64,000 nucleotides of DNA. It comes from Gammaproteobacteria bacterium. GTDB taxonomy: Bacteria; Pseudomonadota; Gammaproteobacteria; SZUA-152. The notes beneath the pieces were generated by a model. It was not told where the DNA came from. It made no database searches and saw only the letters and a list, made by a program, of their open reading frames with translations. Below, one piece after another: positions 4,610 through 49,122 of this stretch. Position 1 is the stretch's first letter, and every line of letters starts with the position of its first letter. A program made the position numbers and the translations under genes. The stretch is taken from contig JAKIUN010000001.1 in assembly GCA_021647505.1 (NCBI GenBank), forward strand, positions 17,828-81,827, written 5' to 3'.

Positions 4610-5155
4610 TCAATCAAAACCGATGACCACCCGGATCCGACCGTCTTCAACGCGCATGGATTTCATGTTGCTCATGGACAGCGAGTGATTGATATCTTGT
4701 TCTCGCACTTGGTGAATACGCACCAAGGGCAGCGTTTTTATCAATATATCGGACAGGCTGGCGCGAAATGTCTTTCGGGACTCGTCGGTGATATCTTTCA
4801 TGGTGAAGCCGCGAATTTTTGGGTTCGCCAAAAACAGTTCGCCGGTCGAGGGTTTGTAGTGCAAACCAACGTCGGCGACTACCCGCCCCCGCTTCCGGCC
4901 TTCGCCCGGAATGCTGGCGAGCAGCGGAATGTCCAACTGCAATTTGTCCGCATCTTGTCTCAGTATGACCATAGGCTCGGATAGCGTCAGCCGTGCCGCT
5001 GCGCGATATTCATGCAACGGAAAATACATAAGCAAGGCGCTTTGTATACGTGCGCTGTCGACAGTAAAGAAATAGGCGGCAAAGGCCTTTGCCGGAAGCA
5101 GCAATGCCAGGCAGATGAGCAAGCGGCAAATGAAGCGGAATTTCTCTAGTGTCAT
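4610..5155 (-). CDS. DUF1439-family lipoprotein (YceB-like)
   Basis: ORF 4610..5200; likely start MTLEKFRFICRLLICLALLLPAKAFA at ATG 5155. Confidence 0.55.
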   Translation of the reverse strand: MTLEKFRFICRLLICLALLLPAKAFAAYFFTVDSARIQSALLMYFPLHEYRAAARLTLSEPMVILRQDADKLQLDIPLLASIPGEGRKRGRVVADVGLHYKPSTGELFLANPKIRGFTMKDITDESRKTFRASLSDILIKTLPLVRIHQVREQDINHSLSMSNMKSMRVEDGRIRVVIGFD

Positions 5156-10000: not shown

Positions 10001-10618
10001 CGGCAGCAGGGTCTTTTCAAAGGCCTGCCGCAGCGGTTGTTGCAGCCTGATGAAAGCATCCAGGGTGCCCACGGCATCCGTGAGCAGGGTCACGTCCTGC
10101 GGATCGAGTTCGTAGGCGCTGCGCCGCCACCAGTCCTTGAGGGCCGTGATCCACAGCTCGCTGTCGTCGCTGCTCAGATTCACGTCGAAAGACTGGCCGC
10201 TGTTGAAGGCGTGATCGGTGAGGGCGCGCTGGCAGAAACCATGAATGGTGTAGATGGCCGCCTCGTCCATGCTGCGCACGGCCAGCTTGAGGCGCTCGAT
10301 GGCGGCCTGTTGCCCGCTCTCTTCGGCAAGCCGTTGCCGCAGTGCATCGAGGAATGGATCACCACCTGACGGCGGGTCTTGCAGCAACTGCAGGGTCTGA
10401 TACAGACGCGCGCGGATGCGCCCACGCAGCTCTTCGGTAGCGGCATTGGTGAAGGTGACGACGAGGATCTCGCCGACGCCGTAACCGGCCAGCACATGGC
10501 GCAGGTAAAGATTGCCGATGGTGTAGGTCTTGCCGGTGCCGGCGCTGGCCTCGATCAGCTTGATGCCGGTCAGCGGCAGGGCGAGGGTGGTCTGCGGATC
10601 GAGGACGATGGGGTTCAC
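7028..10618 (-). CDS. recB: Exodeoxyribonuclease V beta subunit
   Basis: 1196 aa, N-terminal UvrD-like helicase (LIEASAGTGKTYTI), C-terminal nuclease domain. Confidence 0.9.
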   Translation of the reverse strand: MNPIVLDPQTTLALPLTGIKLIEASAGTGKTYTIGNLYLRHVLAGYGVGEILVVTFTNAATEELRGRIRARLYQTLQLLQDPPSGGDPFLDALRQRLAEESGQQAAIERLKLAVRSMDEAAIYTIHGFCQRALTDHAFNSGQSFDVNLSSDDSELWITALKDWWRRSAYELDPQDVTLLTDAVGTLDAFIRLQQPLRQAFEKTLLPQVDGGLPACFAAWRALVDEMRNIASEWQQRGAELQEILLTSKALKREKKGFYKEENLPAKFEILDDWFASDELQTLPDEFKMLAAATLEKNTKPSQLGKDPLLQAPFFVACQQVLDKRQKISEQLRSTALAESTAFAKQQVRQTKQQNQSMAFNDLLTLLHEALDGPQGPALAESLRQRFPAAMIDEFQDTDALQYGIFRRLYSDQPDCGLTMIGDPKQAIYSFRGGDIFTYMRAKADAVDSRYSLDTNWRSVPGLIEAVNAVFTFRADPFVYSEAIDYQPVRAATEAEKGASHRLLAEGGQAVAPLTLWRIPPDEKGKPPSKTQAQSDLVATTAAEIARLLSLAAHGEVTLGDRPLRPGDIAVLVRNNYEATDVRKALQLHGIAAVSVGRDKVFESTEATGLELLLQAVIQCNDRSHARNALASDLLGLSYNDMAQTAFDEARWLTWVDELRELNRLWRQRGFMSMFQALLQHLNIGRNIAALDNAERRLTNLLHLGELLQAASKTHPGMDALLSWYRQQMRDNADEEAELRLESDEALVNIVTIHKSKGLEYPLVFLPFLWACRAPKFRGELVAFHDEQKRAFLDAAVHADSLQLRLAEKERLAEDIRLAYVALTRAQAKVYLAWGHVATGGNRKCDSGSTALGYLLHPAQTPDDLTHGLPDAFGTGADLDADLTRLADITPCIELCDLPQASVDGSAVLSQTPPPPLAPASFEGAIASDWRVASFTALTRDIHQIHRGGSPRGEDPVLNFPAGSHVGSFLHLLLERLDFQADVETQVATLTKQLAPRFGLDPERHHDTLQQWMRDVVDTPLDTRGLCLRQLANGRRLNELVFDFAIGGVDIAALNTRLQAVANQPLAPIEIDDFRGMITGIIDLIFEHDGRFYIADYKSNFLGGALDDYTPAKLRQAVLDRRYDLQYLLYALALHRYLRQRLADYDYGTHFGGVYYLFLRGMRPASGPCFGIHFDLPDQALIDWLDRQLFAPEANFE

Positions 10619-13600
10619 AGCGCCTCTCCGTGGTTCAGCGCCGTGGCGTACAGGGCCGTGGCCAGCTCGGTGAATTCTGTGCAGGCCAGTGGATTGGCAT
10701 TCAGGCCACGCAGGGCCAACTGGATATAGACATCATCCTGATCGCCGGGAATATTCTGAAAACGGTTGCCCGCCCATTTGCCCGCCGCTGCCTTCATGGC
10801 TTTTTCGGCGTCGTCCCGCTTCATCGCCCAGGCATGGCTGGCGTCGGGGAACACCGGCAGTGGCCGCTGCAGGCCCTGCCAATAGATGTCCACGTATTGC
10901 TGTAATTCGGCCCGTGCGGTCACTGCGGGCACGACGGCAAAACGCCAGGCCGCATCACGGCAGACCAGGGTGCTGCCCTCATCCGCTGTCAGTCGTTCAC
11001 TGGCGCACAGTGCCAGGTGATCCAGCCACAGGCCCAGCAGCGCCTTGCCCTTTAGCTTCGAGGCGCTGACGTGCAGTACGCCACAGCCCGGCAGGTAGCG
11101 TTCGATCTGCCCACCGAGGCGGAAGCCGTCGGCACAGGCGATGTCCACCGGCCGAGGACTGAACTCACCACCGACGAAGCCCTTCAGCGTCTCCATCAAG
11201 GGCGCTACTTCCTGTTGCTCGCGCACCAGGCTGATTTCGGAAAACACCCCGTGCGGCAACAGGCCTCGGGCACGCAGCTGTTCGGTGCGAGTCGCACGGC
11301 CCTGTAAAAAATCGTCGAGCAGGCGCGACTTGATCGCCCAGCGTTGCAGGCCATCGAGGGCAAACGGCTCTTCGTCCTCGTTCTGCGCCGTCTCCTGCAA
11401 ATAGATGCGCAGGCGTTGGTTGAAAAAATATTTCACCGGATGGGCAAGAAACCGGCGCAGGCTTTTCAGCTCGATGTCGTGCCGTTCGCCGTCCGCCAGT
11501 GGCAGCGATACGCCGGGCCAGTCCTGTGCTTCTGCGACCTCCGCATTACCTTGAATGGCCGTGGCCACTCGGCACCAGTAGCGGTCGTAGCTGGCGTCGT
11601 TTTGCGCATAATTGCGTGGGCTGAAGGGCTGCAGGGGGTGCAGTCGGGTGATGCGCTTGCTGATCGGCGCCTCGCCGGCAGCGAGCGGGTAACGACTATC
11701 CATGAAGTCGAGCAGCTCGTGCACCAGCACCGAGGGCTGACGCTCGCCGTTGTCTTTCATGTCACGACCGGTGTAGCTGATGTAGAGCATCTGCCGCGTG
11801 CAGAGCAGGGTTTCCAACAATAAATAGCGATCCTCATCGCCCTTGCGCGGATCACCCGGCCGCCACTGGTCAGCCATGCCATCGAACTCCAGGGCCTGCT
11901 CGCGGCGCGGGAAGGCCTGGTCATTCATGCCCAGCAGGCAGATGACGCGGAACGGCAGGCTGCGCATGGGGCGCATGCCGCAGAAGGTGACGCCGCCGGA
12001 GAAATAGCGGCCGTGCAGGGTCTGCTGGCCGAGAACCTTATCCAGCCAGTGGCGCAGCAACGGCGACGAGAGGATCTGTTCGTCCGCCTGCTGGTGCAGT
12101 TCGTCGAGGCTGTCGCGGATCTGTTGCAGCTTGCCGTCGTCGTCATGCTCGCTGAAGAAATCCTCCAGCAGGCGGTTGAGCAGCCGCTGCCAGTCACCGG
12201 CGCTGCGCTCGTGCGACAGCTCGCGGCGGTAGTCGCGCAGGCGCTCGAACAGTTGCCAGAAGCGTCCCAGGGCGATGGCCTTGTCACCCTCGGCGACGGC
12301 CAGCGGCGCGATGTCCTGCCAGTCGTCATCCACGCCCAGGGCATAGCCGGCGAACAGTCGCTGTCCCGCCTGCCGCCAAGTATTTTGTTCAAAGCCCGGC
12401 AGGCCCAGCTCGCGCTTGTGTTCGGCATCCAGGCCCCAACGCACTTCGGCCTCATCCAGCATTTCGCGAATCGCCTCGCAAGCGACGGCATCCAGGCCGA
12501 AGCGCGCACTCAGTTCCGGCACGTCCAGATATGACATCACCTCAGAGTGGCTGAAGCGGCTTTCCGGCAAGGTGAGTAACTGGAAAAAGATACGGATCAG
12601 GGGATGCTCATCGGCGATGCTGATATCCGACAAGTTCCACGGAATGAAGGGCCGCGCGCCCGATTCGTCCTTGCGGAACACAGCCTCGATGAAGGGGGCG
12701 TAGCGACTGATCTCTGGCACCATGATGAGAATATCTTCCGGCTTCAGGGTACTGTCGGCATCCAGCGCGCGCAGCAACTGGTCGTGCAGCACCTGGCATT
12801 CGCGCAGTGGGCTGTGGCAGATGTGCAACTGCACCGAACCGTCCGCCGTGGGTCTGGTCGGCGGCTGGTCGAGGTTGAAAATGTCCTGCTGGATGTGGTG
12901 TAGCAGGCTGTCGGCGGCAGGCGGGCGGTAATCCTCCCACTCGGCGGCCTGCAAGTCGTCGTGATTCAGCAGCAGATCCTGCAGGGCCTGGCCCTGGCGG
13001 CCCCAGGAGGCCAGCAGCTCGTTACCGGTATCGAAATAGACCGCCGTATCGGGTGACTGCATGCGCAGGCGTGAGAGGGCCTTTTTGCTTTTCAGATCCG
13101 CCCAGTACTGATCCGTGGGACTGTGCAGGTACAGGTCGATCTCGCCCGTCGATGGGTGTGCGGCAAGGGCGTGCAGCACATCCACGAACAGCGGCGGCAG
13201 GGTGGAGAGGGCGAACAGGCTGATGCGCTCAGGCAGCGGTATGCTCGTGCCCTTTTGCAGGCGTTGCAGCAGGCGATCCAGCACCGCCACCCGGTGGCTG
13301 TCGCCAAGATCCGCGATCAACTCGCGCCACAGCAGCGCCTGCCAGTCGTCGCCCTCGCCGCAGCTCCACTGGCGGATCAGCGCCGGGCGGTAAAACTGAT
13401 AGCGATCCAGCACGTCGGCGATGCGTGCCGACAGCTGCCAGCGTTTGAGGTCGTCGCTGTCGTCGCGCAGGTAGTGCTGTAGCGGCTGAAAGGCCGGGTG
13501 CGCCAGCAGTGTTGGCAGCAGGGCGAATATCTTCCAGCCCAGGCGCTGGCGTTCCAGTGGATCGGTGTCCGGGGTGTCATCCAGCACCTGACCGGTCAAT

Positions 13601-13836
13601 GCCCAGACCCACGAGGCCGGCAGGGGGTACGCCAGATTAGCGGCAACGCCGTGGGCCTGCGCCAATTGCAGGTTGATCCAGCGTGCCATGGCCGGGCTGG
13701 GCACGACGATGACCTCGGCATCAAACGGCGAGGCCAGCGGCCGCGCAGCCAGCCGCCGGGCCAGCTCAGCCAGCAGAGACTCGATGCGGTTTGAACTGAT
13801 GAGCTGTAGCGCCACGGAGTGCTGCCTGTTGGTCAC
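10615..13836 (-). CDS. recC: Exodeoxyribonuclease V gamma subunit
   Basis: 1073 aa, typical RecC N-terminus MTNRQHSVALQLISSNRIESLLAEL; 4-nt overlap with recB. Confidence 0.9.
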   Translation of the reverse strand: MTNRQHSVALQLISSNRIESLLAELARRLAARPLASPFDAEVIVVPSPAMARWINLQLAQAHGVAANLAYPLPASWVWALTGQVLDDTPDTDPLERQRLGWKIFALLPTLLAHPAFQPLQHYLRDDSDDLKRWQLSARIADVLDRYQFYRPALIRQWSCGEGDDWQALLWRELIADLGDSHRVAVLDRLLQRLQKGTSIPLPERISLFALSTLPPLFVDVLHALAAHPSTGEIDLYLHSPTDQYWADLKSKKALSRLRMQSPDTAVYFDTGNELLASWGRQGQALQDLLLNHDDLQAAEWEDYRPPAADSLLHHIQQDIFNLDQPPTRPTADGSVQLHICHSPLRECQVLHDQLLRALDADSTLKPEDILIMVPEISRYAPFIEAVFRKDESGARPFIPWNLSDISIADEHPLIRIFFQLLTLPESRFSHSEVMSYLDVPELSARFGLDAVACEAIREMLDEAEVRWGLDAEHKRELGLPGFEQNTWRQAGQRLFAGYALGVDDDWQDIAPLAVAEGDKAIALGRFWQLFERLRDYRRELSHERSAGDWQRLLNRLLEDFFSEHDDDGKLQQIRDSLDELHQQADEQILSSPLLRHWLDKVLGQQTLHGRYFSGGVTFCGMRPMRSLPFRVICLLGMNDQAFPRREQALEFDGMADQWRPGDPRKGDEDRYLLLETLLCTRQMLYISYTGRDMKDNGERQPSVLVHELLDFMDSRYPLAAGEAPISKRITRLHPLQPFSPRNYAQNDASYDRYWCRVATAIQGNAEVAEAQDWPGVSLPLADGERHDIELKSLRRFLAHPVKYFFNQRLRIYLQETAQNEDEEPFALDGLQRWAIKSRLLDDFLQGRATRTEQLRARGLLPHGVFSEISLVREQQEVAPLMETLKGFVGGEFSPRPVDIACADGFRLGGQIERYLPGCGVLHVSASKLKGKALLGLWLDHLALCASERLTADEGSTLVCRDAAWRFAVVPAVTARAELQQYVDIYWQGLQRPLPVFPDASHAWAMKRDDAEKAMKAAAGKWAGNRFQNIPGDQDDVYIQLALRGLNANPLACTEFTELATALYATALNHGEAL

Positions 13837-14124: not shown

Positions 14125-14200
14125 GCCCGGGTAGCTCAGTCGGTAGAGCAGTGGACTGAAAATCCTCGTGTCGGCAGTTCGATTCTGTCCCCGGGCACCA
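14125..14200 (+). tRNA. tRNA-Phe (GAA)
   Basis: GCCCGGGTAGCTCAGTCGGTAGAGCAGTGGACTGAAAATCC...GGTTCGATTCTGTCCCCGGGCACCA; cloverleaf folds by hand; anticodon loop CTGAAAA; encoded CCA. Confidence 0.9.
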
Positions 14201-16792: not shown

Positions 16793-16867
16793 GCGGGCGT
16801 CGTATAACGGCTATTACCTCAGCTTCCCAAGCTGATGACGTGGGTTCGACTCCCATCGCCCGCTCCA
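16793..16867 (+). tRNA. tRNA-Gly (CCC)
   Basis: GCGGGCGTCGTATAACGGCTATTACCTCAGCTTCCCAAGCTGATGACGTGGGTTCGACTCCCATCGCCCGCTCCA; anticodon loop TTCCCAA; encoded CCA. Confidence 0.85.
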
Positions 16868-18643: not shown

Positions 18644-19788
18644 TTATTGTCCATCAATAAACCACCCCGCAGCTTGCTGCGTAGGCTTTTTGTTCAAACG
18701 CCTAAGCGTTTGAACTGGTAGTACAATACCCCGCTTTCGCGTAGCGAAATAGCTTGCTGCGGGGTGGTTTATTGGCAATATTTGGTAGTTCCATTCGCCA
18801 TGAAACACATTACGTTTGATTTGCACTTCGGCAAGTAAATCGTCACTAATTTTTTTAGACTTTTCATATTCGCTTTTGTCCAACCAAGCGTGAACTTCCA
18901 AACCTTCTTTAGTTTTTGTTGAACCAATAAGGTTAACGACAATCTCGTGAGTTTCCAATGGAACGCCCTGCCAGTTACGCGTGATATGGCAAAATAAGCG
19001 GTGCTCTATTTTATTCCACTTGCTGGTTCCTGGTGGGTAGTGACATAACTCTATCTTTAAACCTGTTTTGTTGGAAAACAGTTGTAGCGCCCACCGCCAA
19101 AGTCGAGTTCGTGGACTATTGCTACCCCCGCAGTCTGCCGTTATCAATAGTCGTTTGGCCGCAGGGTATCGCTTCTTACCCATCTTTACCCACCACCGTT
19201 CAATTGCGGCTACTGCAAATTCTGCCGTGTCATGACTAACGCAACCGATACGCCTGCTTCATTTAAAGCCATATCGTAAACCCCGTAGGGAACGGCTTTG
19301 CCGAGTGCTTTATCTGGAAAATCATGGGTGCTAACTTTCCTGGGCTTGCCTTTTGGTTGGTAAGTTTTCCCTGCATTTTTCATATTGCCTAAGGGCTCTT
19401 TCTTTTTTGTATCGATAGAGACTGCGGGTTGCTGTGCTCGCAAAATGGCTTTAACTCGTTTGTTGATGTGTTCGAATTGTGCGTTACGATCAGGGTGTTG
19501 CTTCCCTTCGATTGTTTTTCGATTAGCTTGAAGACTATAGCCTTGCGAACGAAGCAATTGCCCGATCTTCGTACTGCTAACAAAGTACCCTTGCCGTTTC
19601 AATTCTCGCGAGGGTGTATGCGTGCTTTTACCGCACCAATCCAACACTGAATTCGGTAACTTATTGTTTTGCAGGCCCTTAGTCCGCGAAACAGCAAAAG
19701 AAAAGGCCGAAGTCGTTAATGAGCTACAGGGAGTACGAAAATCATTGTTACCCGGATATCGAGTCAAAATGCTTGACGGTAACTGCAT
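18644..19788 (-). pseudogene. ISAzo13-family (DDE_Tnp_ISAZ013) transposase, degraded: N-terminally truncated, internal frameshift/deletion between 19183 and 19210
   Basis: Two adjacent minus-strand ORFs in different frames. 19210..19788 carries ..GYSLQANRKTIEGKQHPDRNAQFEHIN..KVSTHDFPD..PYGVYD. 18644..19183 carries LLITADCGGSNS..CHYPPGTSKWNKIEHRLFCHITRNW..FHGEWNY, the hallmark C-terminal block. The 3' end runs through palindromes (gttcaaacgc ctaa gcgtttgaac; caataaaccaccccgcagc inverted repeat 18655/18757). Confidence 0.75.
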
Positions 19789-20749
19789 TGAAGCATCAGA
19801 ACACCGGCTGGATGTGTTAAGGGAGACCAGAGCGGGTGCGCTTCCCGGAAAGTCCCTTGTTGTTTATGACCCCGCGTTGGAAATGGCTATTGATGTTTTT
19901 CCTTGTGAGGATGGCCATGCGCAGGAACGTTCTCTGCTTGGGCAATTATTACCCACGATTGAACCCTCTGATGTGTGGATCATGGATCGAAATTTTTGTG
20001 TTCGCGCGTTTCTTCTGACCATTGATGACAACGATAGTTATTTCATCTGTAGAGAGCATAAAGGGCTTAAGTGGGAGGCATCTGGTCGAGAAATAAAAGT
20101 GGGGAAAACAGGCACTGGAACGCTATATGAGCACTGGGTCAGTATCATTGATGATTTTGGTAAGAGCAGACAATACCGCAGGATTCGACTGTGCCTGAAC
20201 TCAGAAACGCGTGACAGTGAAAAGGAAATTGTCATTCTGACCAATCTGACGAAAACCACGGCCAACGCCAAGCTTATCGCCGAGCTGTATCGCAAGCGAT
20301 GGCGCATAGAAACGCTGTTTCAAGAGCTGGAAGCACATTTACATTCAGAAGTGAATACATTGGGCTATCCGAAAGCAGCCCTATTTGGGTTTTGTGTTGC
20401 GCTGGTTGCTTACAATGTTCTTGCCGTTGTAAAAGCCACTCTACGAGTTCAACATGGGGAAGAGAAAATAGAAAAGGAAGTATCTGGATATTATTTGGCG
20501 GGAAACATTGCCCGCACTTATGATGGAATGATGGTTGCGTTACCGGATAAAGAGTGGATTATCTTTCAAGCGATGCCTCTATTTAGACTGGCTGAGGTTT
20601 TGCTTCAGCTTGGGTCAAATGTGACGTTGTCAAAATTCATGAAGTCGAGGCGAGGCCCAAAGAAACCTCTTGTCAAGCGCAATAAATATTCGAAGCATCC
20701 ACATGTTTCTACGGCAAAGTTGCTACGTGGGGAAAAACCAAATGAATAG
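19622..20749 (+). mobile_element. IS4-superfamily (DDE_Tnp_1, IS701/ISAs1-like) transposase gene, apparently inserted into and truncating the ISAzo13-like element
   Basis: 375 aa; DDE candidates WIMDRNF, ...LTNL, and YRKRWRIETLFQELE (Y-x2-R-x3-E signature). Its 5' end overlaps the antisense N-terminal non-homologous extension of the ISAzo13 ORF. Element ends not resolved. Confidence 0.65.
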
Positions 20750-24688: not shown

Positions 24689-25651
24689 ATGAACAAAAAT
24701 GAACAACTACAGCAACAACTGAGCGAACTGCGGCACGAGAACCAGCAGCTGAAATATGCGCGCGAGAACGACCAGCAGAAAAAGCAGCGCGTACATCTCG
24801 AAGAACTAGTGGCCGACCGCACCCAGGAGTTGAGCAGCATCAATGAACAGTTGCGCAAGGAGATTACCGAACGCGAACAGGCCGAGGAGATCGCCCGCCA
24901 GCATCAGGAAAAACTGGCACACGTGGCTCGCATCAACACCGTGGGTGAAATGGCCTCCGGCCTGGCCCACGAAATCAACCAGCCACTGGCCGCCATTGCC
25001 ACTTACACCCAAGGCTGCCTGCATCGCCTGCGTAAGGCCGATGACGACCCGCAAAAGCTCGGCCCTATCCTGGAACAGATCATCGTCCAGGCGCAACGCG
25101 CCGCCACCATCGTTCAACATCTACGCAACTTCGTGACCAAGGGCAAACCACACCGCGAACTCACCGACATCACCCAGGTGGTACGCCGTGCCGTAAGCCT
25201 AGTACGTGGTGAAATTCTTAGCAACGAGATCAAACTGGATATCCTGCAAGACGCCACCTTACCGCCGGTCAATGCCGATGCTATCCAGGTGGAACAGGTC
25301 ATCCTTAACCTGCTGCGCAACGCCATCGATGCACTGAGTGAAGTAAAGGAAGGTGTAGAAGGCGACCGCAAAGAATTAAAGATCATGCTCGACTGCTGCG
25401 AAAATCAGGAGATCAGCATCACCATCAGTGACACCGGCCCTGGCTTCAGCGACGACACCCGGGATAAGCTCTCCTCGCCCTTCTTCAGCACCAAACCCGA
25501 AGGTATGGGACTGGGGCTGGCCATCAGCACCACTATCATTGAGGATCACGGCGGTCATCTCAGCCACGAAGTCAATGATGCCGGTGGCGCCACCTTCCGC
25601 TTCACTCTGCCTGCAAACGGTCGGCGCAGTGAGCGGCACGCACAGGCCTAA
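24689..25651 (+). CDS. Soluble sensor histidine kinase (coiled-coil N-terminus, HisKA + HATPase_c; no obvious sensor domain)
   Basis: Track ORF 24257..25651 is an out-of-frame extension over the permease; real start MNKNEQLQQQLSELRHENQQLKY at ATG 24689; H-box GLAHEINQPL; G-box DTGPGF; GLGLAIS. Confidence 0.8.
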   Translation: MNKNEQLQQQLSELRHENQQLKYARENDQQKKQRVHLEELVADRTQELSSINEQLRKEITEREQAEEIARQHQEKLAHVARINTVGEMASGLAHEINQPLAAIATYTQGCLHRLRKADDDPQKLGPILEQIIVQAQRAATIVQHLRNFVTKGKPHRELTDITQVVRRAVSLVRGEILSNEIKLDILQDATLPPVNADAIQVEQVILNLLRNAIDALSEVKEGVEGDRKELKIMLDCCENQEISITISDTGPGFSDDTRDKLSSPFFSTKPEGMGLGLAISTTIIEDHGGHLSHEVNDAGGATFRFTLPANGRRSERHAQA

Positions 25652-25700
25652 CCCTGGGGTAATTACTTATAAAAACAGGTAATTACCCCAGGGTTAGGCC
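25645..25700. repeat. Perfect 22-bp palindrome ggcctaaccctggggtaattac / gtaattaccccagggttaggcc with 12-nt loop, containing the HK stop codon; no U-tract
   Basis: read directly. Confidence 0.85.
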
Positions 25701-36414: not shown

Positions 36415-36689
36415 GCTTTGATTTATCGTTGTCGACAGACAGGTTGTTAAAAAAGCCAAAAAACAAAAAGAAAAAGGCAGTCCCGATAGAGACTGCCGCC
36501 TTGTAGATCGGCTGATTCTATCGACTTATTAATTCCGAGGCAATAGCGGGCCTTTAGGTACTTTTTGAAGGATTATAGGTGTTGCGGGGTGCTTTCGGCG
36601 TCGCTGGGGTTGTCGTTGCCGAGTAGAATTTTGACCAGGTTTCAGCGCGATCGCCCGTGAGTTGATGCAAATGCAACCCAGGCAGATCC

Positions 36690-36790
36690 ATAATAATAGG
36701 GACAGAGAGAGAGGGGCACCAGCTACCCTGGGTACTTCCGTTATTCCAGCACCTACTCAACGGCCTTCCCCTTCTGTCCCCAATTATTCG
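36690..36790 (+). repeat. Repeat family B, copy 1 (shortened)
   Basis: taatagggacagagagagaggggcaccagctaccctgggtacttccgttattccagcacctactcaacggccttccccttctgtcc aligns with copies at 40176-40326 and 40896-41056. Confidence 0.8.
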
Positions 36791-36794
36791 CAAA

Positions 36795-37118
36795 TCAGCC
36801 GCGCCGCTTTTTGGTGTCGACTGAATTTGCCTTGTTAGCTGATTTATCTACAAGCTGACCATCTATGAATTTATGCAGAATGCTGGAAACAAGTGTTTGA
36901 TACGGCATACCTTCCATTAAGGCCTTTGCTTGCAGTGATCGAAGATCACGAGAAGACAAACGAATATTAATACGCGCATCTTTTTTGAATGTTGCCTTAG
37001 CAGCTTCCATATGCTGTTTAATCTGTCGTTTTGAATTTTTAGACTTCTTCATTTTTCCCGCTTCAAAAGCCTCTAGAATTTCTTCTTCTTCAGTGTCTAA
37101 TTTACTCATTTGCATCAC
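36795..37118 (-). CDS. brnA: BrnA-family antitoxin (ribbon-helix-helix)
   Basis: 107 aa; ..ARINIRLSSRDLRSLQAKALMEGMPYQTLVSSILHKFIDG.. matches the recalled BrnA C-terminal block; overlaps brnT by 17 nt, downstream of toxin as in brnTA operons. Confidence 0.75.
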   Translation of the reverse strand: MMQMSKLDTEEEEILEAFEAGKMKKSKNSKRQIKQHMEAAKATFKKDARINIRLSSRDLRSLQAKALMEGMPYQTLVSSILHKFIDGQLVDKSANKANSVDTKKRRG

Positions 37119-37383
37119 CTATGTACTGCTTAGTTGCTTTGCGACTTGGGATAATTGTTTTGAGAAATATTTCATCCTTTTCTTCAATATAGGGAACTAA
37201 ATATGCGTAATCTTCTATCACTACAACTGATATCTTTTGATTTGGGTAAAGCACCTTATTCGGGTGATCGTAGATATCAACTTCATTACCTAGTTGTATA
37301 TTAAGGACTATTTTTTCAAATGAGACATTCCTTTCTCTCTTGAGTGTTTCATTTTTCTCGGGGTTCCAAGCATATATTTTCAT
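37102..37383 (-). CDS. brnT: BrnT-family (DUF497) ribonuclease toxin
   Basis: 93 aa; W-NPEKNETLKRERNVSFEKI.. and ..IIPSRKATKQ recalled BrnT hallmarks. Confidence 0.75.
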   Translation of the reverse strand: MKIYAWNPEKNETLKRERNVSFEKIVLNIQLGNEVDIYDHPNKVLYPNQKISVVVIEDYAYLVPYIEEKDEIFLKTIIPSRKATKQYIGDANE

Positions 37384-37448
37384 TTACAGACCATAGCTTA
37401 AAGTGTGCATTTTGTCATCAAAAAGCTAACATATCACTCAAGTTTTGG

Positions 37449-37600
37449 AGGGACAATAGGGGGTAGGCCGGAATGGCACTTCCTTAAGGGCGTATTTCCA
37501 ATAAAAACAATGCCCTATGCCTGTCTCTACGTTAATGCTGATGGTTAGGGAAAGGCCCTTTCAACTGTATGTATAGCACTTTCAAGGTAACTACTCAGCC
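37449..37600 (+). repeat. Repeat family A, copy 1 (left TIR present, right end missing)
   Basis: gggacaataggg + ggtaggccggaatggcacttccttaagg...ttcaactgtatgtatagcactttcaagg; ~80% identical to 39943-40075. Confidence 0.8.
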
Positions 37601-37663
37601 CTCAGCCCCAAATTCAGATAAGCCATTGAATAACCGTCCGATTTTGGTATAAGCTTTGTTGCC

Positions 37664-37933
37664 ATGCAAACACCTCTCGACAAAAAAGCCCTCAGCGTAT
37701 TAGAAAAAAATGACTTGATTGCACTGCTGATGCAGCAAAACGAAATCCTCATGGTGCAGTGCGCTCGTATCGCTGGTCTGGAAAAGGAGATCGAGGAATT
37801 AAAGGGCAAACTGGCCAAGAACAGCCGTAATAGCAGTAAGCCGCCCTCCAGTGACGGTTATGACAAACCCAAGCCAAAAAGCCAGCGCAAGATCAGGGGG
37901 CTTGCGACCAGAACGGCGGTGGCCGGTGAATGA
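37664..37933 (+). pseudogene. IS66-family transposase (TnpC) N-terminal fragment
   Basis: 89 aa; coiled-coil then NSRNSSKPPSSDGYDKPKPKS block recalled from IS66 TnpC; terminates prematurely; no tnpA/tnpB nearby. Confidence 0.7.
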
Positions 37934-38351
37934 CTTTCCGGTCAGAAGCCGGGAGAGAAGGTGCCCTGTGTAGAAAGTCCAACCGCAAAAAAGGGCTGCA
38001 CGGGCGTCCACAGAAATGACAGCGGATACCTTCAGCCTCAGTGGTAGCAACGGATGCCGGGGCTTCTGACCGAGGGGGTAGTGGATCATTGAGGGGTGAT
38101 TCAGGAGAACCCTGATGCGTCACTTTCTTGCGGCGTGATCGGTAATGGTGTTGACGCTCAGCATGCTTGAAACGGCCGTTGCGAGTGTTCTGATAGCGTC
38201 TTCCGGCTGCATTTAGTGATGCTTTACGGGCTAAGTCTGCACAGGATTTACCGCAGTAGATATTGCCCCGGTCGCAGTGGCCGCAGATGATGACTTGGCA
38301 GTGACAACGGGCACAGTTGTAGAGACGGGCAGTGTTCTCCATCGGTGGCAA
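37893..38351 (-). CDS. Hypothetical Cys/His-rich zinc-ribbon-like protein (possibly IS-associated); coding status uncertain
   Basis: 152 aa; NCARCHCQVIICGHCDRGNIYCGKSC then basic R/K-rich stretch; overlaps 3' end of IS66 fragment on the opposite strand. Confidence 0.3.
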   Translation of the reverse strand: MPPMENTARLYNCARCHCQVIICGHCDRGNIYCGKSCADLARKASLNAAGRRYQNTRNGRFKHAERQHHYRSRRKKVTHQGSPESPLNDPLPPRSEAPASVATTEAEGIRCHFCGRPCSPFLRLDFLHRAPSLPASDRKVIHRPPPFWSQAP

Positions 38352-38779
38352 CTGCCGATGAGAACTGGCATGGATGGAAAATGGGGGTCATACTATCCAT
38401 GCTCGTGCTTTTGCACGGTCTTGGGGTGTGGTACCGGGGGACTGTTGAGGTCAAGATCCGGTGCCACACCTGTCTCAACGGCTCTCTCCATTTTCCCGAT
38501 TTCTTTACTTGATGTCACTCGTTGTAGCTGGCTGTTTCTTCTGACTTGCTATCCGCAGCTCTTTTGTCCGGTTACCGCTGTTCGCCAACTATGCTCGGGT
38601 TTTGACCGCCATCTACACCTGCGCTTTTGTTCAATCAGAACGAACAAATACAGGCTAAATATGAGCGCCATACCAGGATGTTATTTCGTGCACGTTCCTA
38701 AGAAAGTGATTCATAGGGTAAGTGCTTGGTCATCAGAAAATAATCTTGTTCTTGGGCAAGTAATGGAGAGCCCTATTCG

Positions 38780-39595
38780 TTAGGCCATTAGGCCTTTTTC
38801 TTCCATGAAATCATCAGGTACATCTGATGTTTTCCATCCTGTTATCGCGAAGTAGTACAGTGGCTCGCCTTCAATTGATAGTCTATGTCGGTAGCGTTCG
38901 ATGTAGTAAATATCAAGATATTTAGAGAAAATTAATTCCCTGATCATTTTTGAAAACCCTGAGTCATCGCTTCTATCAAAGAAGGTATCCTTAATATTAA
39001 AGGCCACCCACGCTTCGCTCTTGATTATATTAAAGGCCTCTAAAAATGCCTTCGTCGGAATATCGCCGAAACCTAGTGCGGCAACCGTTACCATGCAATC
39101 ACATTGCCATGCTGCTATTTCTTCCTTTTTATCCTTGTCTAGGATGGTGAAATCTTCAACATAGTATGCATCATAGACTCCTGGCCTATCGCGAATTGCT
39201 GCATCATAAGCTTCGGGTATTATGTCTACACCTATTAAACGAGAAACTCCATGCTTTTTTAGCTCTTCTCCCATCATGCCATTGCCTGCACCTAAATCTA
39301 ATATACGAAGCTCAGTAAAGTTATTTTGATACTGTTTTACCGCTGATTCGAGAATTGATGCTACTTTACCTGGAGATGTACATTTAAGGCGATCATAAAA
39401 TATTTGTTCATACAGACCTGGTACTTGGTAAATTTCATCGTAGTCGTGGAACCTTATTTTTCTCTTACCACCTGAACCTTGAAGGTAGAAATAGGCTTCG
39501 TCTTGATTGATGCTGGTTAATTCATCTTTCGGAAATTGTATTTGGTGTCTTATCGTCATTACTTTCCCAGTTTTGTTTGGATATATATTGGCCAT
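38780..39595 (-). CDS. Class I SAM-dependent methyltransferase
   Basis: Start MANIYPNKTGKVMTIRHQ at ATG 39595; motif I LDLGAGNGMMGEEL; low-GC. Confidence 0.7.
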   Translation of the reverse strand: MANIYPNKTGKVMTIRHQIQFPKDELTSINQDEAYFYLQGSGGKRKIRFHDYDEIYQVPGLYEQIFYDRLKCTSPGKVASILESAVKQYQNNFTELRILDLGAGNGMMGEELKKHGVSRLIGVDIIPEAYDAAIRDRPGVYDAYYVEDFTILDKDKKEEIAAWQCDCMVTVAALGFGDIPTKAFLEAFNIIKSEAWVAFNIKDTFFDRSDDSGFSKMIRELIFSKYLDIYYIERYRHRLSIEGEPLYYFAITGWKTSDVPDDFMEEKGLMA

Positions 39596-39942
39596 CACGG
39601 TAGGAATGCCGGTCACCCTTCCCCCCCTCCGCTCCCGCACGGATCCTCTTTATTGCCCAATAAGTTTACGCTAATACATTAGTTGCGACTACTTTCCTTG
39701 GATACTCAAATATTAATATTGAGAATCATTCCTGCAAAATCTTGGTGCTTTACTATAGTCTGAAGTCAATTTTATCACCTCTTTGAGCAGCAGAGGGGGT
39801 AGTTCTCGTGCAAATCGATACCACACACAGCAAATAGGGATGTGTGTTACTGTGGAGAACACACATTGGGTTTTCTTCCGTTGTTGGTTTGGTCGCCTTC
39901 CAGTTTAACCAGATAGAGTTAAAATGAGCATAAATTTTAACC

Positions 39943-40175
39943 GAGAGGGCAGGCCAGAATGGCACTTCCTCAGGGGTATATTTATAATAAGAACAATGTC
40001 TTATGCTTGAGTCTGAGTTAATGCTGCTGGCAAGGAAAAAGCCATTTCAACTGTATTTATAGCGTTTTCAAGATCAGTGATAGCAGCAGAAGATAAGAGT
40101 CTTAGCGCAAAATAAATGCAGACAGACTTGATTTATAAAGAAAATATCCTTAAGGAAGTGCCATTCGGGGCAGGC
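39943..40175. mobile_element. Repeat family A, copy 2: complete MITE-like unit with ~25-bp terminal inverted repeats (ggccagaatggcacttcctcagggg / ccccgaatggcacttccttaagg)
   Basis: Left TIR 39958-39985; right TIR inverted at 40148-40172; internal sequence ~80% identical to copy 1. Confidence 0.65.
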
Positions 40176-40326
40176 CGCGACAATAGGGTAGAGGGTAGAG
40201 TAGAGAGCAGGCGCCGGCTACCCCGGGAGTCTGTAGATGCTACTTCCGTTATTCCAGTGCCTACTCAACGGCCTTCCCCTTCTGTCCTCAGGGTCAGCTC
40301 CGCCAATTCGTTTACGAGGCTACATT
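40176..40326 (+). repeat. Repeat family B, copy 2 (full length), ending exactly at the SET-gene start codon
   Basis: cgacaatagggtagagggtagagtagagagcaggcgccggctacc...cttccgttattccagtgcctactcaacggccttccccttctgtcctcagggtcagctccgccaattcgtttacgaggctacatt|ATG. Confidence 0.85.
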
Positions 40327-40815
40327 ATGAAAGATGGGTTTGAGTTAAGGAATTCTTCTGGAAAGGGAGAAGGCATTTTCGCCACCAAATCATTTACGGT
40401 TGGTGACACAGTAATGATTGGCGTTATTAAAGAAGTGCTGAATGGGAATCATTCTCATGCTTCACAGGTGGGCGAAAATAAGTTTGTGCTTCACGATGGA
40501 TTAGTAACTAAGGTTAATCATTCCTGTGACCCAAATTGTGGTGTTAGAGAAAATGAAACTGGCGCACATAATTTTGTTGCAATAAAGGAGATTAGTGTTA
40601 ATGAAGAAATAACTTTTGATTATGCTATGCGAAACTATATTATCGACTACTTCCCGCAGAAGTGTATGTGTGGCTCTGAGGGATGTCGCGGTAGGATTAC
40701 AGGATGGAAAGATTTGCCAGATAAAAAGAAGAAAGCCTATGAAGGCTTTGAAGCTCCTTATCTGCTTGAGTTGGATGCTAAGAGTTCTTGCGCGAAAGTG
40801 GTAGGTTATACATAG
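40327..40815 (+). CDS. SET-domain protein (putative protein-lysine methyltransferase) with Cys-rich post-SET region
   Basis: Start MKDGFELRNSSGKGEGIFATKSF at ATG 40327; SET signature NHSCDPN, EITFDY, C-terminal CMCGSEGCRG. Confidence 0.75.
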   Translation: MKDGFELRNSSGKGEGIFATKSFTVGDTVMIGVIKEVLNGNHSHASQVGENKFVLHDGLVTKVNHSCDPNCGVRENETGAHNFVAIKEISVNEEITFDYAMRNYIIDYFPQKCMCGSEGCRGRITGWKDLPDKKKKAYEGFEAPYLLELDAKSSCAKVVGYT

Positions 40816-40895
40816 TGAAAAAACCTAACGAATAAAGTTTCGTGTTGAGTTAAGTTCAGAAATTTGTGGTCAGAATGGATGCTGTGAAATTAGTT

Positions 40896-41056
40896 GGGAC
40901 AATAGGGAACAGGCCACGACAATAGGCTAGAGTAGAGAGCAGGCACCGGCTACCTTAGGCGTCTGTAGATGCTACTTTCGTTATTCCAGCACCTACCTCA
41001 ACGGCCTTCCCCTTCTGTCCGCAGGGTCAGCTCCTCCAATTTGTTTGCGAGGCTAC
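40896..41056 (+). repeat. Repeat family B, copy 3 (no ORF follows; ends ...gaggctacatatagg)
   Basis: gggacaatagggaacaggccacgacaataggctagagtagagagcaggcaccggctacc...ttattccagcacctacctcaacggccttccccttctgtccgcagggtcagctcctccaatttgtttgcgaggctacat. Confidence 0.85.
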
Positions 41057-41300
41057 ATATAGGTTCACTTACTTGCCGGAAGAAAGCTCATGACCCTGTG
41101 TTACCACAGCGCCGCTTCCTCATACTACCGAGGCGTACGGACAATTCCTCGGACGGGACTTTAACCCGCTAGACTTACTGCTATTACTGCGAACGGACAG
41201 GCCACGGTTTTTAGAAAACCCAGGCTGTTAAATCGTGCTTTGTCCCCGATCGCCGGGTAGAACCATCTCCCAATATCGAGTTGTTTGATCTTTAGGCTGG

Positions 41301-41981
41301 TCATGGTGACGTTTTTAATTGCTCTTTGAGTTCGGCGACTTCCGCTTCCAGCCGACTGACCCTCTGTGCCAACTCGGACACACTGCCCCGCTCTGAAGTC
41401 GCGACGTCAATCGCAGACTGTGCTTGGCTTGCGTGTGCTTCAATGTCAATGGAACCGGAGAACATGTGCATGTACTCTGAGTCCTTGCGTCCGGGCGTGC
41501 GCGGGAGCTTCACTACCAACGGATTGCCTTCCCACTCGATCAGCCCGGCAAGGGTATCCACGACGGCAGAATTGTCGGTGAAGGCATGCAGGCGACCACT
41601 GCGCGATTTTAGCTCCCCAGGCGTTTGAGGGCCGCGCAGCAATAGCAAGCAGACAATAGCAAACTGAGATGGGTTAAACTGATATTCGCCAAAGTGTGTA
41701 CTGCAAAAGCGTTGTGTGAATTTCTCAACCCCACTCTTGAAATTCTCCTCAGCGCGTATGAGATGTTTGGCCTGCAAGTCGCGGGCGGTACGTTGGACTA
41801 TGCCTGGCTCCAGGGACATTAAAGGATCGCGGCTGGATTTCTGGTTGCAGGCGTTGGTAAGAGCATTAAGCGTCAATGGATATTGATCCGGCGTGACGAC
41901 AGATTTCTCCATCAGACAACCGATTACGCGGGCTTCGTTGGCGGAAAAATTCAACAGCACAGTTGGATCCTCATTAAACAT
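41301..41981 (-). CDS. yceH: YceH-family protein (DUF480/UPF0502)
   Basis: 226 aa; LNFSANEARVIGCLMEKSVVTPDQYPLTLNALTNACNQKSSRDPLMSL recalled as closely matching E. coli YceH. Confidence 0.8.
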   Translation of the reverse strand: MFNEDPTVLLNFSANEARVIGCLMEKSVVTPDQYPLTLNALTNACNQKSSRDPLMSLEPGIVQRTARDLQAKHLIRAEENFKSGVEKFTQRFCSTHFGEYQFNPSQFAIVCLLLLRGPQTPGELKSRSGRLHAFTDNSAVVDTLAGLIEWEGNPLVVKLPRTPGRKDSEYMHMFSGSIDIEAHASQAQSAIDVATSERGSVSELAQRVSRLEAEVAELKEQLKTSP

Positions 41982-48413: not shown

Positions 48414-48725
48414 ATGAGTGACTCGGAACATTTAATTACTCGCGATGAAGATATAGAGCGCGCCTCGCGTTCTATCAAGGCCATGTCGCATCCCTTGCGG
48501 CTGAAGATTCTCTGTGCCCTGGGCGGCAAGGAGGTTAGTGTGCAGGACATCGTCGGCATGGTGGGCACCTCGCAGAGCAATATATCCCAACATCTGGCCA
48601 TTCTGCGCGACAAGGGTATTCTGGTGTCGCGCAAGGACGCCAACCGTGTCTATTACCGTATCGGTGATGCGCGAACCCTGCGCCTCATCAGTATGATGCG
48701 CGAGGTTTTTTGTTCCGCCGATTAG
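48414..48725 (+). CDS. ArsR/SmtB-family transcriptional regulator
   Basis: Start MSDSEHLI at ATG 48414; HTH ..VSVQDIVGMVGTSQSNISQHLAILRDKGILVSRKDANRVYY. Confidence 0.8.
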   Translation: MSDSEHLITRDEDIERASRSIKAMSHPLRLKILCALGGKEVSVQDIVGMVGTSQSNISQHLAILRDKGILVSRKDANRVYYRIGDARTLRLISMMREVFCSAD

Positions 48726-48728
48726 GAT

Positions 48729-48984
48729 CTGTTGACGCTCTATTTTCATCACTGTTGCGTCTGAAAAAGCGCCAATCAAGGCGCGAGGAGAGAAGTTTGG
48801 TGACTGCAAATAAACGACGAGCAACGCCGAGTGGCGCTTTTTCAGACGCAACCCGCAGGGCTGGGCCGCTTTTTCCGCCCTGCGGCGTTGTCAGTCGCTT
48901 GTGTAGAACAACTACACAGCACTCCTTCCGCCTTGCAGGACAAAAAAAGCGGCTCCAGCAGTGGGGAAAATAGAGCGTCAACAG
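48729..48984. repeat. Densely nested palindromic element (~255 bp): outer 19-bp perfect IR ctgttgacgctctattttc/gaaaatagagcgtcaacag; inner 20-bp perfect IR gttgcgtctgaaaaagcgcc/ggcgctttttcagacgcaac; further hairpins ccgcagggc..gccctgcgg and tgtgtag..ctacaca
   Basis: All arms verified as exact reverse complements; lies between arsR and the rhodanese-grx gene; the overlapping 87-aa ORFs on both strands are mirror artefacts of the palindrome. Confidence 0.8.
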
Positions 48985-49122
48985 ACCCTAATGCCAACTG
49001 GCCCCTGGTACTTCGGCAAGGCAACAACTCTTTAACCCGCGATACCACGCTGATGGCTTGAGTTTCCCGCCTTTCCGCTATATCGTCCGCCCACTTTCCA
49101 CTCAAACGATCCCAAAAAAACT

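Follow-up and report, generated by a model that had tools for sequence, protein, structure and literature searches.

A stand-alone SET-domain methyltransferase gene with features of an integron-type cassette, lying in mobile-element debris beside an apparently unrelated methyltransferase gene

The 64-kb stretch of DNA analysed here (the window) carries a gene whose 162-aa product is a genuine stand-alone SET-domain protein, a predicted methyltransferase. The gene moves between distant bacteria, probably as an integron-type cassette with a single gene. The SET gene is, in our reading, a fairly ordinary mobile gene, and the class-I SAM-dependent methyltransferase (MTase) gene next to it is there by accident. 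We assign a probability of about 70% to this joint core, namely the SET identity, the mobility of the gene and the lack of a link to the MTase. The main present yield is the correction of an over-reading: the pairing of MTase and SET and the "leader" of the SET gene, both proposed in a first-pass annotation of this DNA, are by-products of nested mobile-element debris. Table 1 reports the features of the region.

Table 1. Features of the SET island, with positions in the window
Feature	Position	Strand	Details
Repeat B copy 1; third, more diverged intron fragment	36690..36785	-	50-nt core 94% identical to copies 2 and 3
BrnA/CopG-like antitoxin	36795-37118	-	Pfam CopG_antitoxin 23.9 bits, below cut-off; NCBIfam BrnA weak
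BrnT-like toxin	37102-37383	-	Pfam BrnT_toxin 25.6 bits, below cut-off
Strain-specific 2.4-kb segment	37587..39943	.	Transposase fragment, Cys-rich ORF and MTase
Truncated transposase N-terminus (DUF6444; IS66-type)	37664..37933	+	Pfam PF20042, E=3e-13
Cys-rich ORF, 152 aa	37893..38351	-	CxxCxC...CxxC...CxxxC
Class-I SAM-dependent methyltransferase	38780..39559	-	259 aa, contains ILDLGAGNGMMG
MITE, 44-nt terminal inverted repeats GGGCAGGCCAGAATGGCACTTCC...	39947..40176	.	Inverted repeat I2; aligned with the L094 copy
Repeat B copy 2; 5'-truncated mini group II intron	40195..40325	-	Rfam RF02005 partial, E=7e-4
Native cassette leader remnant	40316..40326	+	GAGG ribosome-binding site and CTACATT; homology starts at 40316
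SET-domain methyltransferase ORF	40327..40815	+	162 aa; ATG 40327, stop 40813-40815
attC-like remnant 3' of SET	40823..40855	+	R''-like core ACCTAAC 40823-40829 and short hairpin ending GTTAAGT 40849-40855
Repeat B copy 3; internally deleted mini group II intron	40927..41194	-	RF02003 at 41039-41171(-), 49.5 bits, gathering score 49
51-bp palindrome GGACAGGCCACGG...CGTGCTTTGTCC, loop GTTAAAT	41195..41245	.	Directly 5' of the bottom-strand intron

A search against Pfam matched the product to PF00856 (SET) with 42.7 bits and E=8.4e-11, above the curated threshold of 22.4. The three motifs on which the first-pass annotation had based its assignment are all present (N64-H-S-C-D-P-N70, E94-I-T-F-D-Y99 and C113-M-C-G-S-E-G-C-R-G122), together with a GxG-type SAM-binding motif, G12-K-G-E-G16. 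In an alignment of 97 sequences of the SET family, reaching down to 30% identity, N64, H65 and D98 are invariant, and Y99 is conserved in at least 90%. The predicted post-SET zinc cysteines (C67, C113, C115 and C120) are likewise invariant in this set, as are H44 and Q47. The window ORF is intact and retains all the family-invariant residues. A 192-aa ORF starting at 40237 was rejected as the SET gene, because its upstream extension is absent in homologues.

The AF2 model of the protein reached a pLDDT of 93.1 and a pTM of 0.86 with the 97-sequence alignment as input, which includes a clade at ~35% identity; the 41 close homologues alone gave a pLDDT of 57.7. At E<=1e-3, 340 SET structures of the PDB matched this model in Foldseek. 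All together, these data support the original assignment to the SET fold, with its catalytic motifs and the post-SET Cys cluster. Among the other searches with the protein, NCBIfam yielded no matching model, PADLOC no defence-system match and the phage search no homologue. The same annotation had called SET proteins uncommon in free-living bacteria, a statement that proved too strong, as relatives form more than 1,400 clusters at 90% identity and 4,881 clusters at 50% identity (E<=1e-3), and at least 582 matches were found among 185,579 species genomes. The hosts of the homologues are free-living bacteria of vent, sediment and soil.

The nearest characterised relative of the SET protein, judged by profile and by predicted fold, is BurB. 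This protein of Burkholderia thailandensis (PDB 9l4t/9l4v) is a SET-domain methyltransferase that S-methylates free L-methionine (PMC12542666) and, together with its Streptomyces homologue MSMT, represents the L-methionine S-methyltransferases of SET fold. Specifically, Foldseek placed BurB (9l4v) first, with E=1.7e-9, followed by ASH1L, NSD2, SETD2 and MLL, and BurB also ranked first when the SET family profile was run against the PDB (E=8.5e-11, residues 4-135 aligned); the BLASTP identity of the two proteins is 28%. Residues H44, Q47, H65 and Y99 align with H72, Q75, H93 and Y124 of BurB, and the cysteines C67/113/115/120 with C95/137/139/144, whereas the BurB SAM contacts R133 and H138 are not conserved, being F109 and M114 in the SET protein. 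Both proteins are stand-alone, of ~160-170 aa, with a SET core, a post-SET CxCxxxxC, an ITGxKxLP tail and the motifs H-x-x-Q, HSC-PN and DYA. Stand-alone enzymes of ~158 aa form the subfamily in which the SET protein falls, and BurB is its sole characterised member. The two differ in their setting, since the BurB gene lies in a biosynthetic cluster with burI/D/E, while the window-type SET gene is always solitary.

The NCBI name of the window protein (MCF6209128.1), SET domain-containing protein-lysine N-methyltransferase, implies a different enzyme, one acting on a conserved bacterial protein of nucleoid-associated or ribosomal type, or else a host-directed effector acting on eukaryotic histones, like Chlamydia NUE or Legionella RomA. 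We consider this a doubtful alternative. Besides the Pfam SET match, it can claim the motifs NHSCDPNC, EITFDY and CxCxxxxCRG, near-identical to those of ASH1L and SETD2, to which the C-terminal half of the protein is about equally similar (E~2.5e-9), and a Foldseek TM of ~0.62 to ASH1L, NSD2 and SETD2, close to the BurB score. The likeness extends to the SET2/ASH1/NSD and MLL histone methyltransferases as groups, with an almost identical NHSCDPNC, ExTFDY and post-SET CxCGxxxCRG, and with a TM of ~0.6 and an RMSD of ~3 A between eukaryotic SET domains and the model. Furthermore, bacterial SET proteins methylating histones or histone-like proteins are documented (PMC3980110). The matches to lysine methyltransferases (KMTs), however, lie mostly in the C-terminal half: histone KMTs align to the SET profile mostly from about residue 54-62 onward, with a few weaker full-length matches to MLL3/MLL4, and the N-terminal half is not recognisably similar to most of the eukaryotic enzymes, whose AWS/pre-SET and reader domains the SET protein also lacks. 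BurB, on the other hand, aligns over the full length and comes first by both profile and fold. Also, the family-invariant H44-x-x-Q47 aligns with BurB; at the position of this His, KMTs presumably carry an aromatic residue in the substrate-side motif. In relatives at 33-39% identity that keep the motif architecture of the SET protein, the SET part is joined to a Lys/Orn N-monooxygenase, GNAT or SDR domain. Such fusions with small-molecule enzymes, which again speak against a protein substrate, occur in these relatives and not in the cassette clade itself. The effector version in particular is unlikely, given the free-living hosts.

Since the SET gene always travels alone, in hosts of several phyla, its substrate must be ubiquitous. 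Judging by BurB and its substrate L-Met, the likeliest option is a small molecule of the free amino-acid type, although we hold it tentatively; a lysine on a conserved host protein comes second and is less probable, and something else comes third. As BurB holds Met via main-chain atoms (PMC12542666), the conservation of side chains cannot decide the Met specificity of the SET protein. In BurB the substrate channel is closed off by a C-terminal helix, and the SET model likewise has a C-terminal helix, at residues 144-160. The surroundings of the homologues were compared at 40 loci: an SDR gene lies within 5 kb of SET in five of them, and none has burI/D/E-like DMSP genes (SMM decarboxylase, aminotransferase, aldehyde dehydrogenase) beside SET, the Streptomyces locus L026 having Mrr and a deacetylase nearby instead.

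As to mechanism, the ORF would encode an intact, self-sufficient SAM-dependent methyltransferase of SET fold. SAM would be held by the G12-K-G-E-G16 loop, H44 and N64-H65, the methyl-transfer pore would be lined by Y99, and the Cys67/113/115/120 zinc cluster would shut the post-SET lid over the substrate. The fullest version of the BurB-like reading, in which the cassette clade encodes a SET methyltransferase of small molecules that circulates horizontally as a lone gene and perhaps makes S-methylmethionine or another methylated free amino acid, is unlikely as a whole. If the BurB-like reading held, thousands of database "SET protein-lysine methyltransferases" would be mis-named small-molecule enzymes, and a very compact, highly conserved SET enzyme would be spreading between phyla as a cassette. 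A small-molecule substrate would further mean that there is a BurB-like HxxQ subfamily of SET enzymes not acting on proteins, that recipients gain a sulfonium/compatible-solute (or SAM-sink) trait in one step, and that integron-type cassettes are a vehicle for organosulfur/amino-acid methylation among vent and sediment bacteria. With 158 aa, soluble-looking and easy to assay, the enzyme makes these ideas cheaply testable.

Evidence for the mobility of the SET gene came from its boundaries. Between the window SET and other genomes, DNA homology (83-88%) is confined to positions 40316 to 40821-40829 and ends at the edges of the ORF, and in eight independent contexts (L001, L005, L006, L007, L009, L094, L098 and L099) the homology starts exactly at the integron R' core GTTRRRY. 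At locus L007, of Chromatiaceae CTD079 (CP037918.1), SET is located inside a five-attC array, flanked by attC sites at 4911-4982 and 5495-5583 and followed by three more downstream; as in integron arrays, it has company there, the cassettes numbering at least five. The attC 3' of SET is canonical in L007 (the one at 5495-5583) and degenerate in L098 and L099, and L007, L098, L099 and L094 all have a core ACCTAAC/ACCTAAT or GCCTAAC downstream of the SET stop codon. In addition, dS of SET between hosts of different phyla is 0.17-0.98 (dN/dS 0.08-0.42), no conservation of neighbours emerged across 40 loci, plasmid-borne copies occur in Streptomyces, and several homologues are inserted singly between housekeeping genes. 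The horizontal acquisition and mobile context suggested in the first-pass annotation are supported. The likeness to integron cassettes and CALINs (attC clusters without an integrase) consists in a likewise promoterless single ORF, with a unit from G|TTRRRY to attC, and in the BrnTA-type toxin-antitoxin genes beside SET in the island.

The window copy differs from integron cassettes in that its R' core is deleted and canonical attC and IntI are missing. A strict scan found no canonical attC in the island, the attC-like remnant being 33 nt long and too short for one, and none of the window ORFs that were searched with Pfam is an integron integrase, nor does one lie within 5 kb of SET in L007. 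The window SET is therefore at best a degraded or orphan cassette. It should be added that the attC scan was home-made, not IntegronFinder, and that its match count over all loci equalled that of shuffled sequence, so that only two findings carry the cassette case, the array in L007 and the recurrence of the R' boundary.

At the 5' end of the window cassette, the first ~15 nt and the R' core are missing, and GTTTACG is found at 40310-40316, while the sister strain L094 keeps the intact leader form ...GTTAGGTttttaatGAGGCTACATtATG. The window leader owes its clipped form to a deletion between two GAGGCTACAT 10-mers. It offers a clean natural case in which deletion at a 10-bp microhomology has shortened a cassette leader and joined it to an antisense intron remnant.

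The element abutting the SET leader, repeat B, had been proposed as the leader driving the gene. Two stretches, 40171-40325 and 40910-41058, carry its sequence with 86% identity to each other, and its 50-nt core is found once more at 36733-36782. Copy 2 is antisense to SET, and its end CTGCTCTCTACTCTAC is also the 3' end of the full-length L097 intron, which has RF00029 and a 472-aa RVT_1+GIIM ORF. Copy 3 retains the 5' end GTTCGCAG..., domain I and the 3' end, and lacks domain V and the RT ORF; RF00029 had no match in the window at E<=1. Relatives of the window introns score higher, with 65 bits for RF02005 in L096 and 55 bits for RF02003 in L094, and blastn of the intron fragment against plasmids gave no match. 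The palindrome abuts the intron 5' end, GTTCG, at 41194, and the junction ...GTGGYCTGTCC|GTTCGCAG is also found in L095 and L096. These data show that repeat B is not a leader but corresponds, in antisense, to domain I of a group II intron joined to the 3' end of the intron.

Group II introns placed antisense to a cassette gene, 3' of a palindrome and between the cassette ORF and the next recombination site, have been described (PMC3001079), and the window remnants share this geometry with group IIC/IIC-attC introns such as S.ma.I2, their class C likeness being one of geometry. Unlike those introns, the window copies are internally deleted, without domain V and RT. The IIC-attC label was rejected for them, as the 5' exon resembles an IS/MITE-tip palindrome and not attC, and they also differ in that no Pout-like promoter was found. 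Specifically, a promoter scan detected no sigma-70-like site inside repeat B, and promoter-like matches around SET were no commoner than in shuffles, which does not support a leader or a Pout-type promoter. The only good -35/-10 match facing SET is at 39959-39988, in the MITE.

The lack of a convincing promoter is compatible with a further explanation, in which the window SET is a silent, decaying passenger, stranded without attC, integrase and promoter after intron and IS insertions and deletions, and of no use to its present host. The truncated 5' end of the cassette, the missing integrase and the surrounding elements, all of them fragments, fit this view, as does the dN/dS of 0.42 against L094, which is above most other pairs and, on few substitutions, indicates that selection on the window SET may be relaxed. 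We nevertheless consider a silent passenger quite unlikely, since the ORF is intact with every family-invariant residue kept, the GAGG ribosome-binding site is retained, and two diverged strains both still carry SET although deletions have struck its flanks independently.

The MTase gene was confirmed as divergent from SET at roughly the 0.7 kb first reported, the true starts being 768 nt apart (687 nt from GTG). The ORF list gave an MTase of 286 aa at 38780-39640(-); more than 100 homologues have 259 aa and start with MTIRHQ, which places the real start at 39559. The protein is above the Pfam curated cut-off only for Methyltransf_11 (24.1 bits vs 21.2), with Methyltransf_23 and _25 below theirs, and it showed a weak mad2 match in PADLOC and no match in the PDB sequence search. 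Its homologues number more than 7,000, with 79-93% identity and 259 aa.

The 2.4-kb segment that carries the MTase is bordered on either side by the 129-nt repeat A, at 37458-37586 and at 39944-40072; the first copy, A1, is the IS left end, upstream of the truncated transposase. The sister L094 (~96% identical, collinear at ~91-97%) has SET without window positions 37587-39943. None of the 84 other loci has an MTase homologue within 5 kb of SET, and MTase homologues are solitary in three unrelated contexts, with no SET in the MTase contexts examined. A second-cassette origin of the MTase was rejected, as its flanks at L086, L090 and L091 contain no attC. We propose that the MTase came separately, on the IS-associated segment, and has no functional link to SET. 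The opposite view, in which the two methyltransferases work together as a module of a mobile element and repeat B is the leader from which SET is transcribed, is very improbable. Adjacent and divergent, both genes have ~39% GC, at least two MAG assemblies contain the pair, and the outward promoters of group IIC-attC introns can drive downstream cassettes (PMC3001079); yet the pair recurs at none of the 84 SET loci or the MTase contexts, L094 carries SET without the segment, and repeat B, with no sigma-70-like site, met the SET start codon only via a secondary deletion. Neither the pairing nor the leader of the first-pass annotation is thus upheld.

The island has a GC content of 44% against a background of 58-61%, with SET at 39.7% and the MTase at 39.1%. 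SET now lies there without an integrase, with argD on one side of the island and a DUF480 gene on the other. The nested low-GC debris of mobile elements around it comprises the BrnTA-like genes, the IS fragment, the MITE and, in antisense, three remnants of group II introns. The BrnT-like and BrnA/CopG-like ORFs overlap (the pair spans 36795..37383, -), and the 152-aa Cys-rich ORF had no match in Pfam, NCBIfam or PADLOC. The terminal repeats of the MITE also flank SET in L009.

The 162-aa stand-alone ORF, assigned to the SET family by the first-pass annotation, scores 42.7 bits in Pfam (cut-off 22.4), and its signature motifs can be read from the sequence at residues 64-70 (NHSCDPN), 94-99 (EITFDY) and 113-122 (CMCGSEGCRG). 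An AlphaFold model built on a diverse alignment of 97 sequences reached a pLDDT of 93.1 and a pTM of 0.86. The PDB matches retrieved with Foldseek are SET enzymes, with BurB of Burkholderia thailandensis (9l4v) ranking first (E=1.7e-9), followed by the SET domains of ASH1L, NSD2, SETD2 and MLL. BurB was also the top match in a family-profile search (E=8.5e-11), through an alignment spanning residues 4-135; histone methyltransferases mostly align only from residue ~54-62 on, and nearly full-length alignments came from a few SET domains of the MLL3/MLL4 type, with weaker E-values. H44, Q47, N64, H65, C67, C71, D98, C113, C115, C120, R121 and G126 are invariant in the family down to 30% identity. 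In the alignment with BurB, H44, Q47, H65 and Y99 pair with H72, Q75, H93 and Y124, and the Cys cluster pairs with C95/137/139/144. As judged from sequence and predicted fold, the gene is genuine and intact and encodes a SET-domain methyltransferase, a new member of the BurB-like stand-alone subfamily.

BurB, a 172-aa SET enzyme, S-methylates free L-methionine and holds its substrate via main-chain atoms (PMC12542666). Since the SET gene travels alone and persists across many phyla, its substrate must be ubiquitous. We favour, with a probability of roughly 45%, a small molecule of the free amino-acid type. The sequence profile and the fold both point to BurB as the closest relative, and BurB also has the invariant HxxQ motif. 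In addition, relatives 33-39% identical and sharing the same motif architecture (HSxQ, DYA, CxCGSxxCRG, Y..F.A.YL; proteins P0466, P0430, P0460 and P0505) carry Lys/Orn N-monooxygenase, GNAT or SDR domains as fusion partners, and an SDR gene lies within 5 kb of SET in 5 of 40 loci (L024, L027, L029, L032, L036). Equivalence with BurB is, however, opposed by a pairwise identity of only 28%, by the lack of conservation at the BurB SAM contacts R133 and H138, and by the finding that no homologue has burI/D/E-like genes beside it. The C-terminal half of the protein is equally similar to lysine methyltransferases, and a protein lysine is an unlikely but credible substrate; something else altogether appears slightly less probable still. 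Unless the small-molecule reading holds, the interest of the gene is moderate to low. Giant proteins of 1,400-1,480 aa, such as P0363, carry 5-8 tandem SET-like stretches ~30% identical to SET.

A word-indexed search gave more than 1,400 clusters at 90% identity, mostly of ~158 aa and 72-86% identical, and an exhaustive search gave 4,881 clusters at 50% identity with E<=1e-3 (51 with E<=1e-30). At least 582 matches were found among 185,579 species genomes, in Gammaproteobacteria, Desulfobacterota, Nitrosomonadaceae, cyanobacteria, Actinomycetota and Erythrobacter; Streptomyces plasmids hold a few copies, and the phages searched held none. Compared with copies from other orders and phyla, the DNA is 83-88% identical, over positions 40316 through 40821-40829 only. 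Across hosts of different phyla, dS is only 0.17-0.98 and dN/dS 0.08-0.42, which points to horizontal transfer in recent times, with purifying selection acting on the gene, and bears out the acquisition proposed earlier.

In eight independent contexts (L001, L005, L006, L007, L009, L094, L098 and L099, all from other genomes) homology starts exactly at an integron R' core, with the pattern GTT(A/G)G(G/A)T-TTTTAATGAGG..ACATT-ATG, and the DNA 5' of the core is unrelated from one context to another. Chromatiaceae CTD079, a complete genome (L007, CP037918.1), has canonical attC sites on both sides of SET, followed by three more with further ORFs between them. In L098 and L099, SET is a lone insertion amid housekeeping genes, with GTTAGGT on its 5' side and a degenerate attC-like hairpin on its 3' side. 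IntI was found neither in the window nor within 5 kb of SET in L007, and our in-house scan found no canonical attC in the window's island. Since the global count of scan matches was no better than in shuffled sequence, the cassette interpretation draws its support from the L007 array and the recurrent R' boundary. These data, which uphold the mobile context, point to SET moving as an integron-type cassette. The sole attC-style scan match in the window is a perfect 54-nt palindrome at 25646-25699 with integron-core-like ends (GCCTAACCCTGGGG...CCCCAGGGTTAGGC); lacking extrahelical bases, it is probably a terminator or a REP-like element.

The divergent class-I methyltransferase gene (MTase) shares with SET an island (~36640-41300) of 44% GC, compared with 58-61% for the chromosome of this vent Gammaproteobacteria MAG, flanked by argD/argF on one side and a DUF480 gene on the other. 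Both proteins are already named at NCBI (SET, MCF6209128.1; methyltransferase, MCF6209127.1). The MTase exceeds the Pfam cut-off for Methyltransf_11 only (24.1 against 21.2 bits), scoring below those for Methyltransf_23 and Methyltransf_25. It ends at 38780 on the minus strand, and its start is placed at 39559 rather than at the GTG at 39640 because more than 100 homologues are 259 aa long.

The proposed pairing of the two genes did not survive comparison with other genomes. By tblastn with the island proteins, neither the MTase, the Cys-rich ORF nor the BrnT-/BrnA-like toxin-antitoxin genes (BrnTA) occur near any of 84 SET homologues, and all-against-all neighbour clustering of 40 loci found no conserved partner. 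The MTase belongs to a separate, large family (>7,000 matches, 79-93% identical) and is solitary in three unrelated contexts, where DNA homology is again limited to the ORF. The sister-strain locus L094, a vent-metagenome contig, runs collinear to the window at 91-97% identity (~96% in flanking housekeeping genes); it has BrnTA and SET, and lacks window segment 37587-39943. In the window this segment is bordered by two copies of the 129-nt repeat A (37458-37586 and 39944-40072, 80% identical), and L094 has one mosaic copy. The SET-MTase adjacency is therefore a strain-level accident, and the pairing an artefact of nested mobile-element debris. In this strain-specific segment, the transposase fragment and the Cys-rich ORF overlap at the end of the former; the Cys-rich ORF has no family match.

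Repeat B, taken at first pass for a leader driving expression, gave group II intron matches in Rfam, and relatives fetched with a 22-nt probe from the repeat gave stronger ones: L096 matches RF02005 at 65 bits, and L097, a full-length copy, includes domains V/VI (RF00029) and a 472-aa RVT_1+GIIM ORF. In the window, the copies start with the 5' end GTTCGCAG (41194), continue across domain I and then skip to the 3' end CTGCTCTCTACTCTAC, identical to the L097 terminus; domain V and RT are missing. All three copies are mini group II introns with an internal deletion that joins domain I to the 3' end. They lie antisense to SET, directly 3' of palindromes (e.g. 41195-41245), the arrangement that has been described for integron-borne class C introns (PMC3001079). 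The 5' exon is always ...GTGGYCTGTCC and the 3' exon CCTATTGTC; positions 40898-40917 (GTGGCCTGTTCC|CTATTGTC) look like an empty target. In sequence, the 5' exon resembles the outer end of the terminal repeat in the local IS/MITE (GTGGYCTGYCCCGAATGGCACTTMCTTAAGG, with flanking direct repeats CTATTGTC), which suggests that the intron homes to IS/MITE ends.

Upstream of SET, the 5' part of the intron and the palindrome survive in L094, as does the SET leader in intact form, with GAGGCTACAT in both intron and leader. The window keeps a single GAGGCTACAT, which indicates that a deletion between the two 10-mers removed ~290 bp. On the opposite side of SET, L094 has a deletion of its own, in which the equivalent of window 41028-41303 was removed at a GGT microhomology; the two deletions are reciprocal and independent. 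A promoter scan found no sigma-70-like site in repeat B, and the sole good match toward SET lies in the MITE (39959-39988), with match counts equal to those of shuffles. The "leader", too, is an artefact of nested mobile-element debris.

Coordinates of features in the window and in related loci
Feature	Position	Strand	Basis or remarks
recC-recB-recD operon	5197-13836	-	Pfam Exonuc_V_gamma, UvrD/PDDEXK, RecD_N
Split ISAzo13-type transposase, two ORFs	18644-19788	-	
IS4-type DDE transposase	19622-20749	+	
Repeat B copies	40927-41194, 40195-40325, 36690-36785	-	
Full-length relative, L097	37-1768	-	
group-II-D1D4-4	41039-41171	-	Rfam, 49.5 bits (gathering score 49)
D1D4-6, partial	40217-40325	-	Rfam
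Strain-specific segment	37587-39943		IS66-type transposase N-terminal fragment (DUF6444), Cys-rich ORF, MTase
Cys-rich ORF, 152 aa	37893-38351	-	CxxCxC...CxxC...CxxxC, 56% GC
SET ORF, 162 aa	40327-40815	+	ORF listing and sequence
IS/MITE family, window	39947-40176, 37458-37933		
IS/MITE family, L009	647-659, 1560-1572		
IS/MITE family, L096	1517-1529		
Deletion sites, window	40316-40325, 41049-41058		
Deletion site, L094	7985-8275		
attC, L007	4911-4982		GCCCAAC...GTTGGGT
attC, L007	5495-5583		GCCTAAC...GTTAGGT

In L009, two IS/MITE copies bracket an attC+SET cassette in the manner of a composite transposon. Elsewhere in the window, the recC-recB-recD operon is followed by tRNA-Phe and tRNA-Gly (14125-14200; 16793-16867), an ordinary chromosomal context, and a second low-GC patch at 18644-20749 carries transposase genes. 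A 37-nt inverted repeat at 48721-48992 (89% complementary, arms 198 nt apart), located in another low-GC dip, may be a further MITE.
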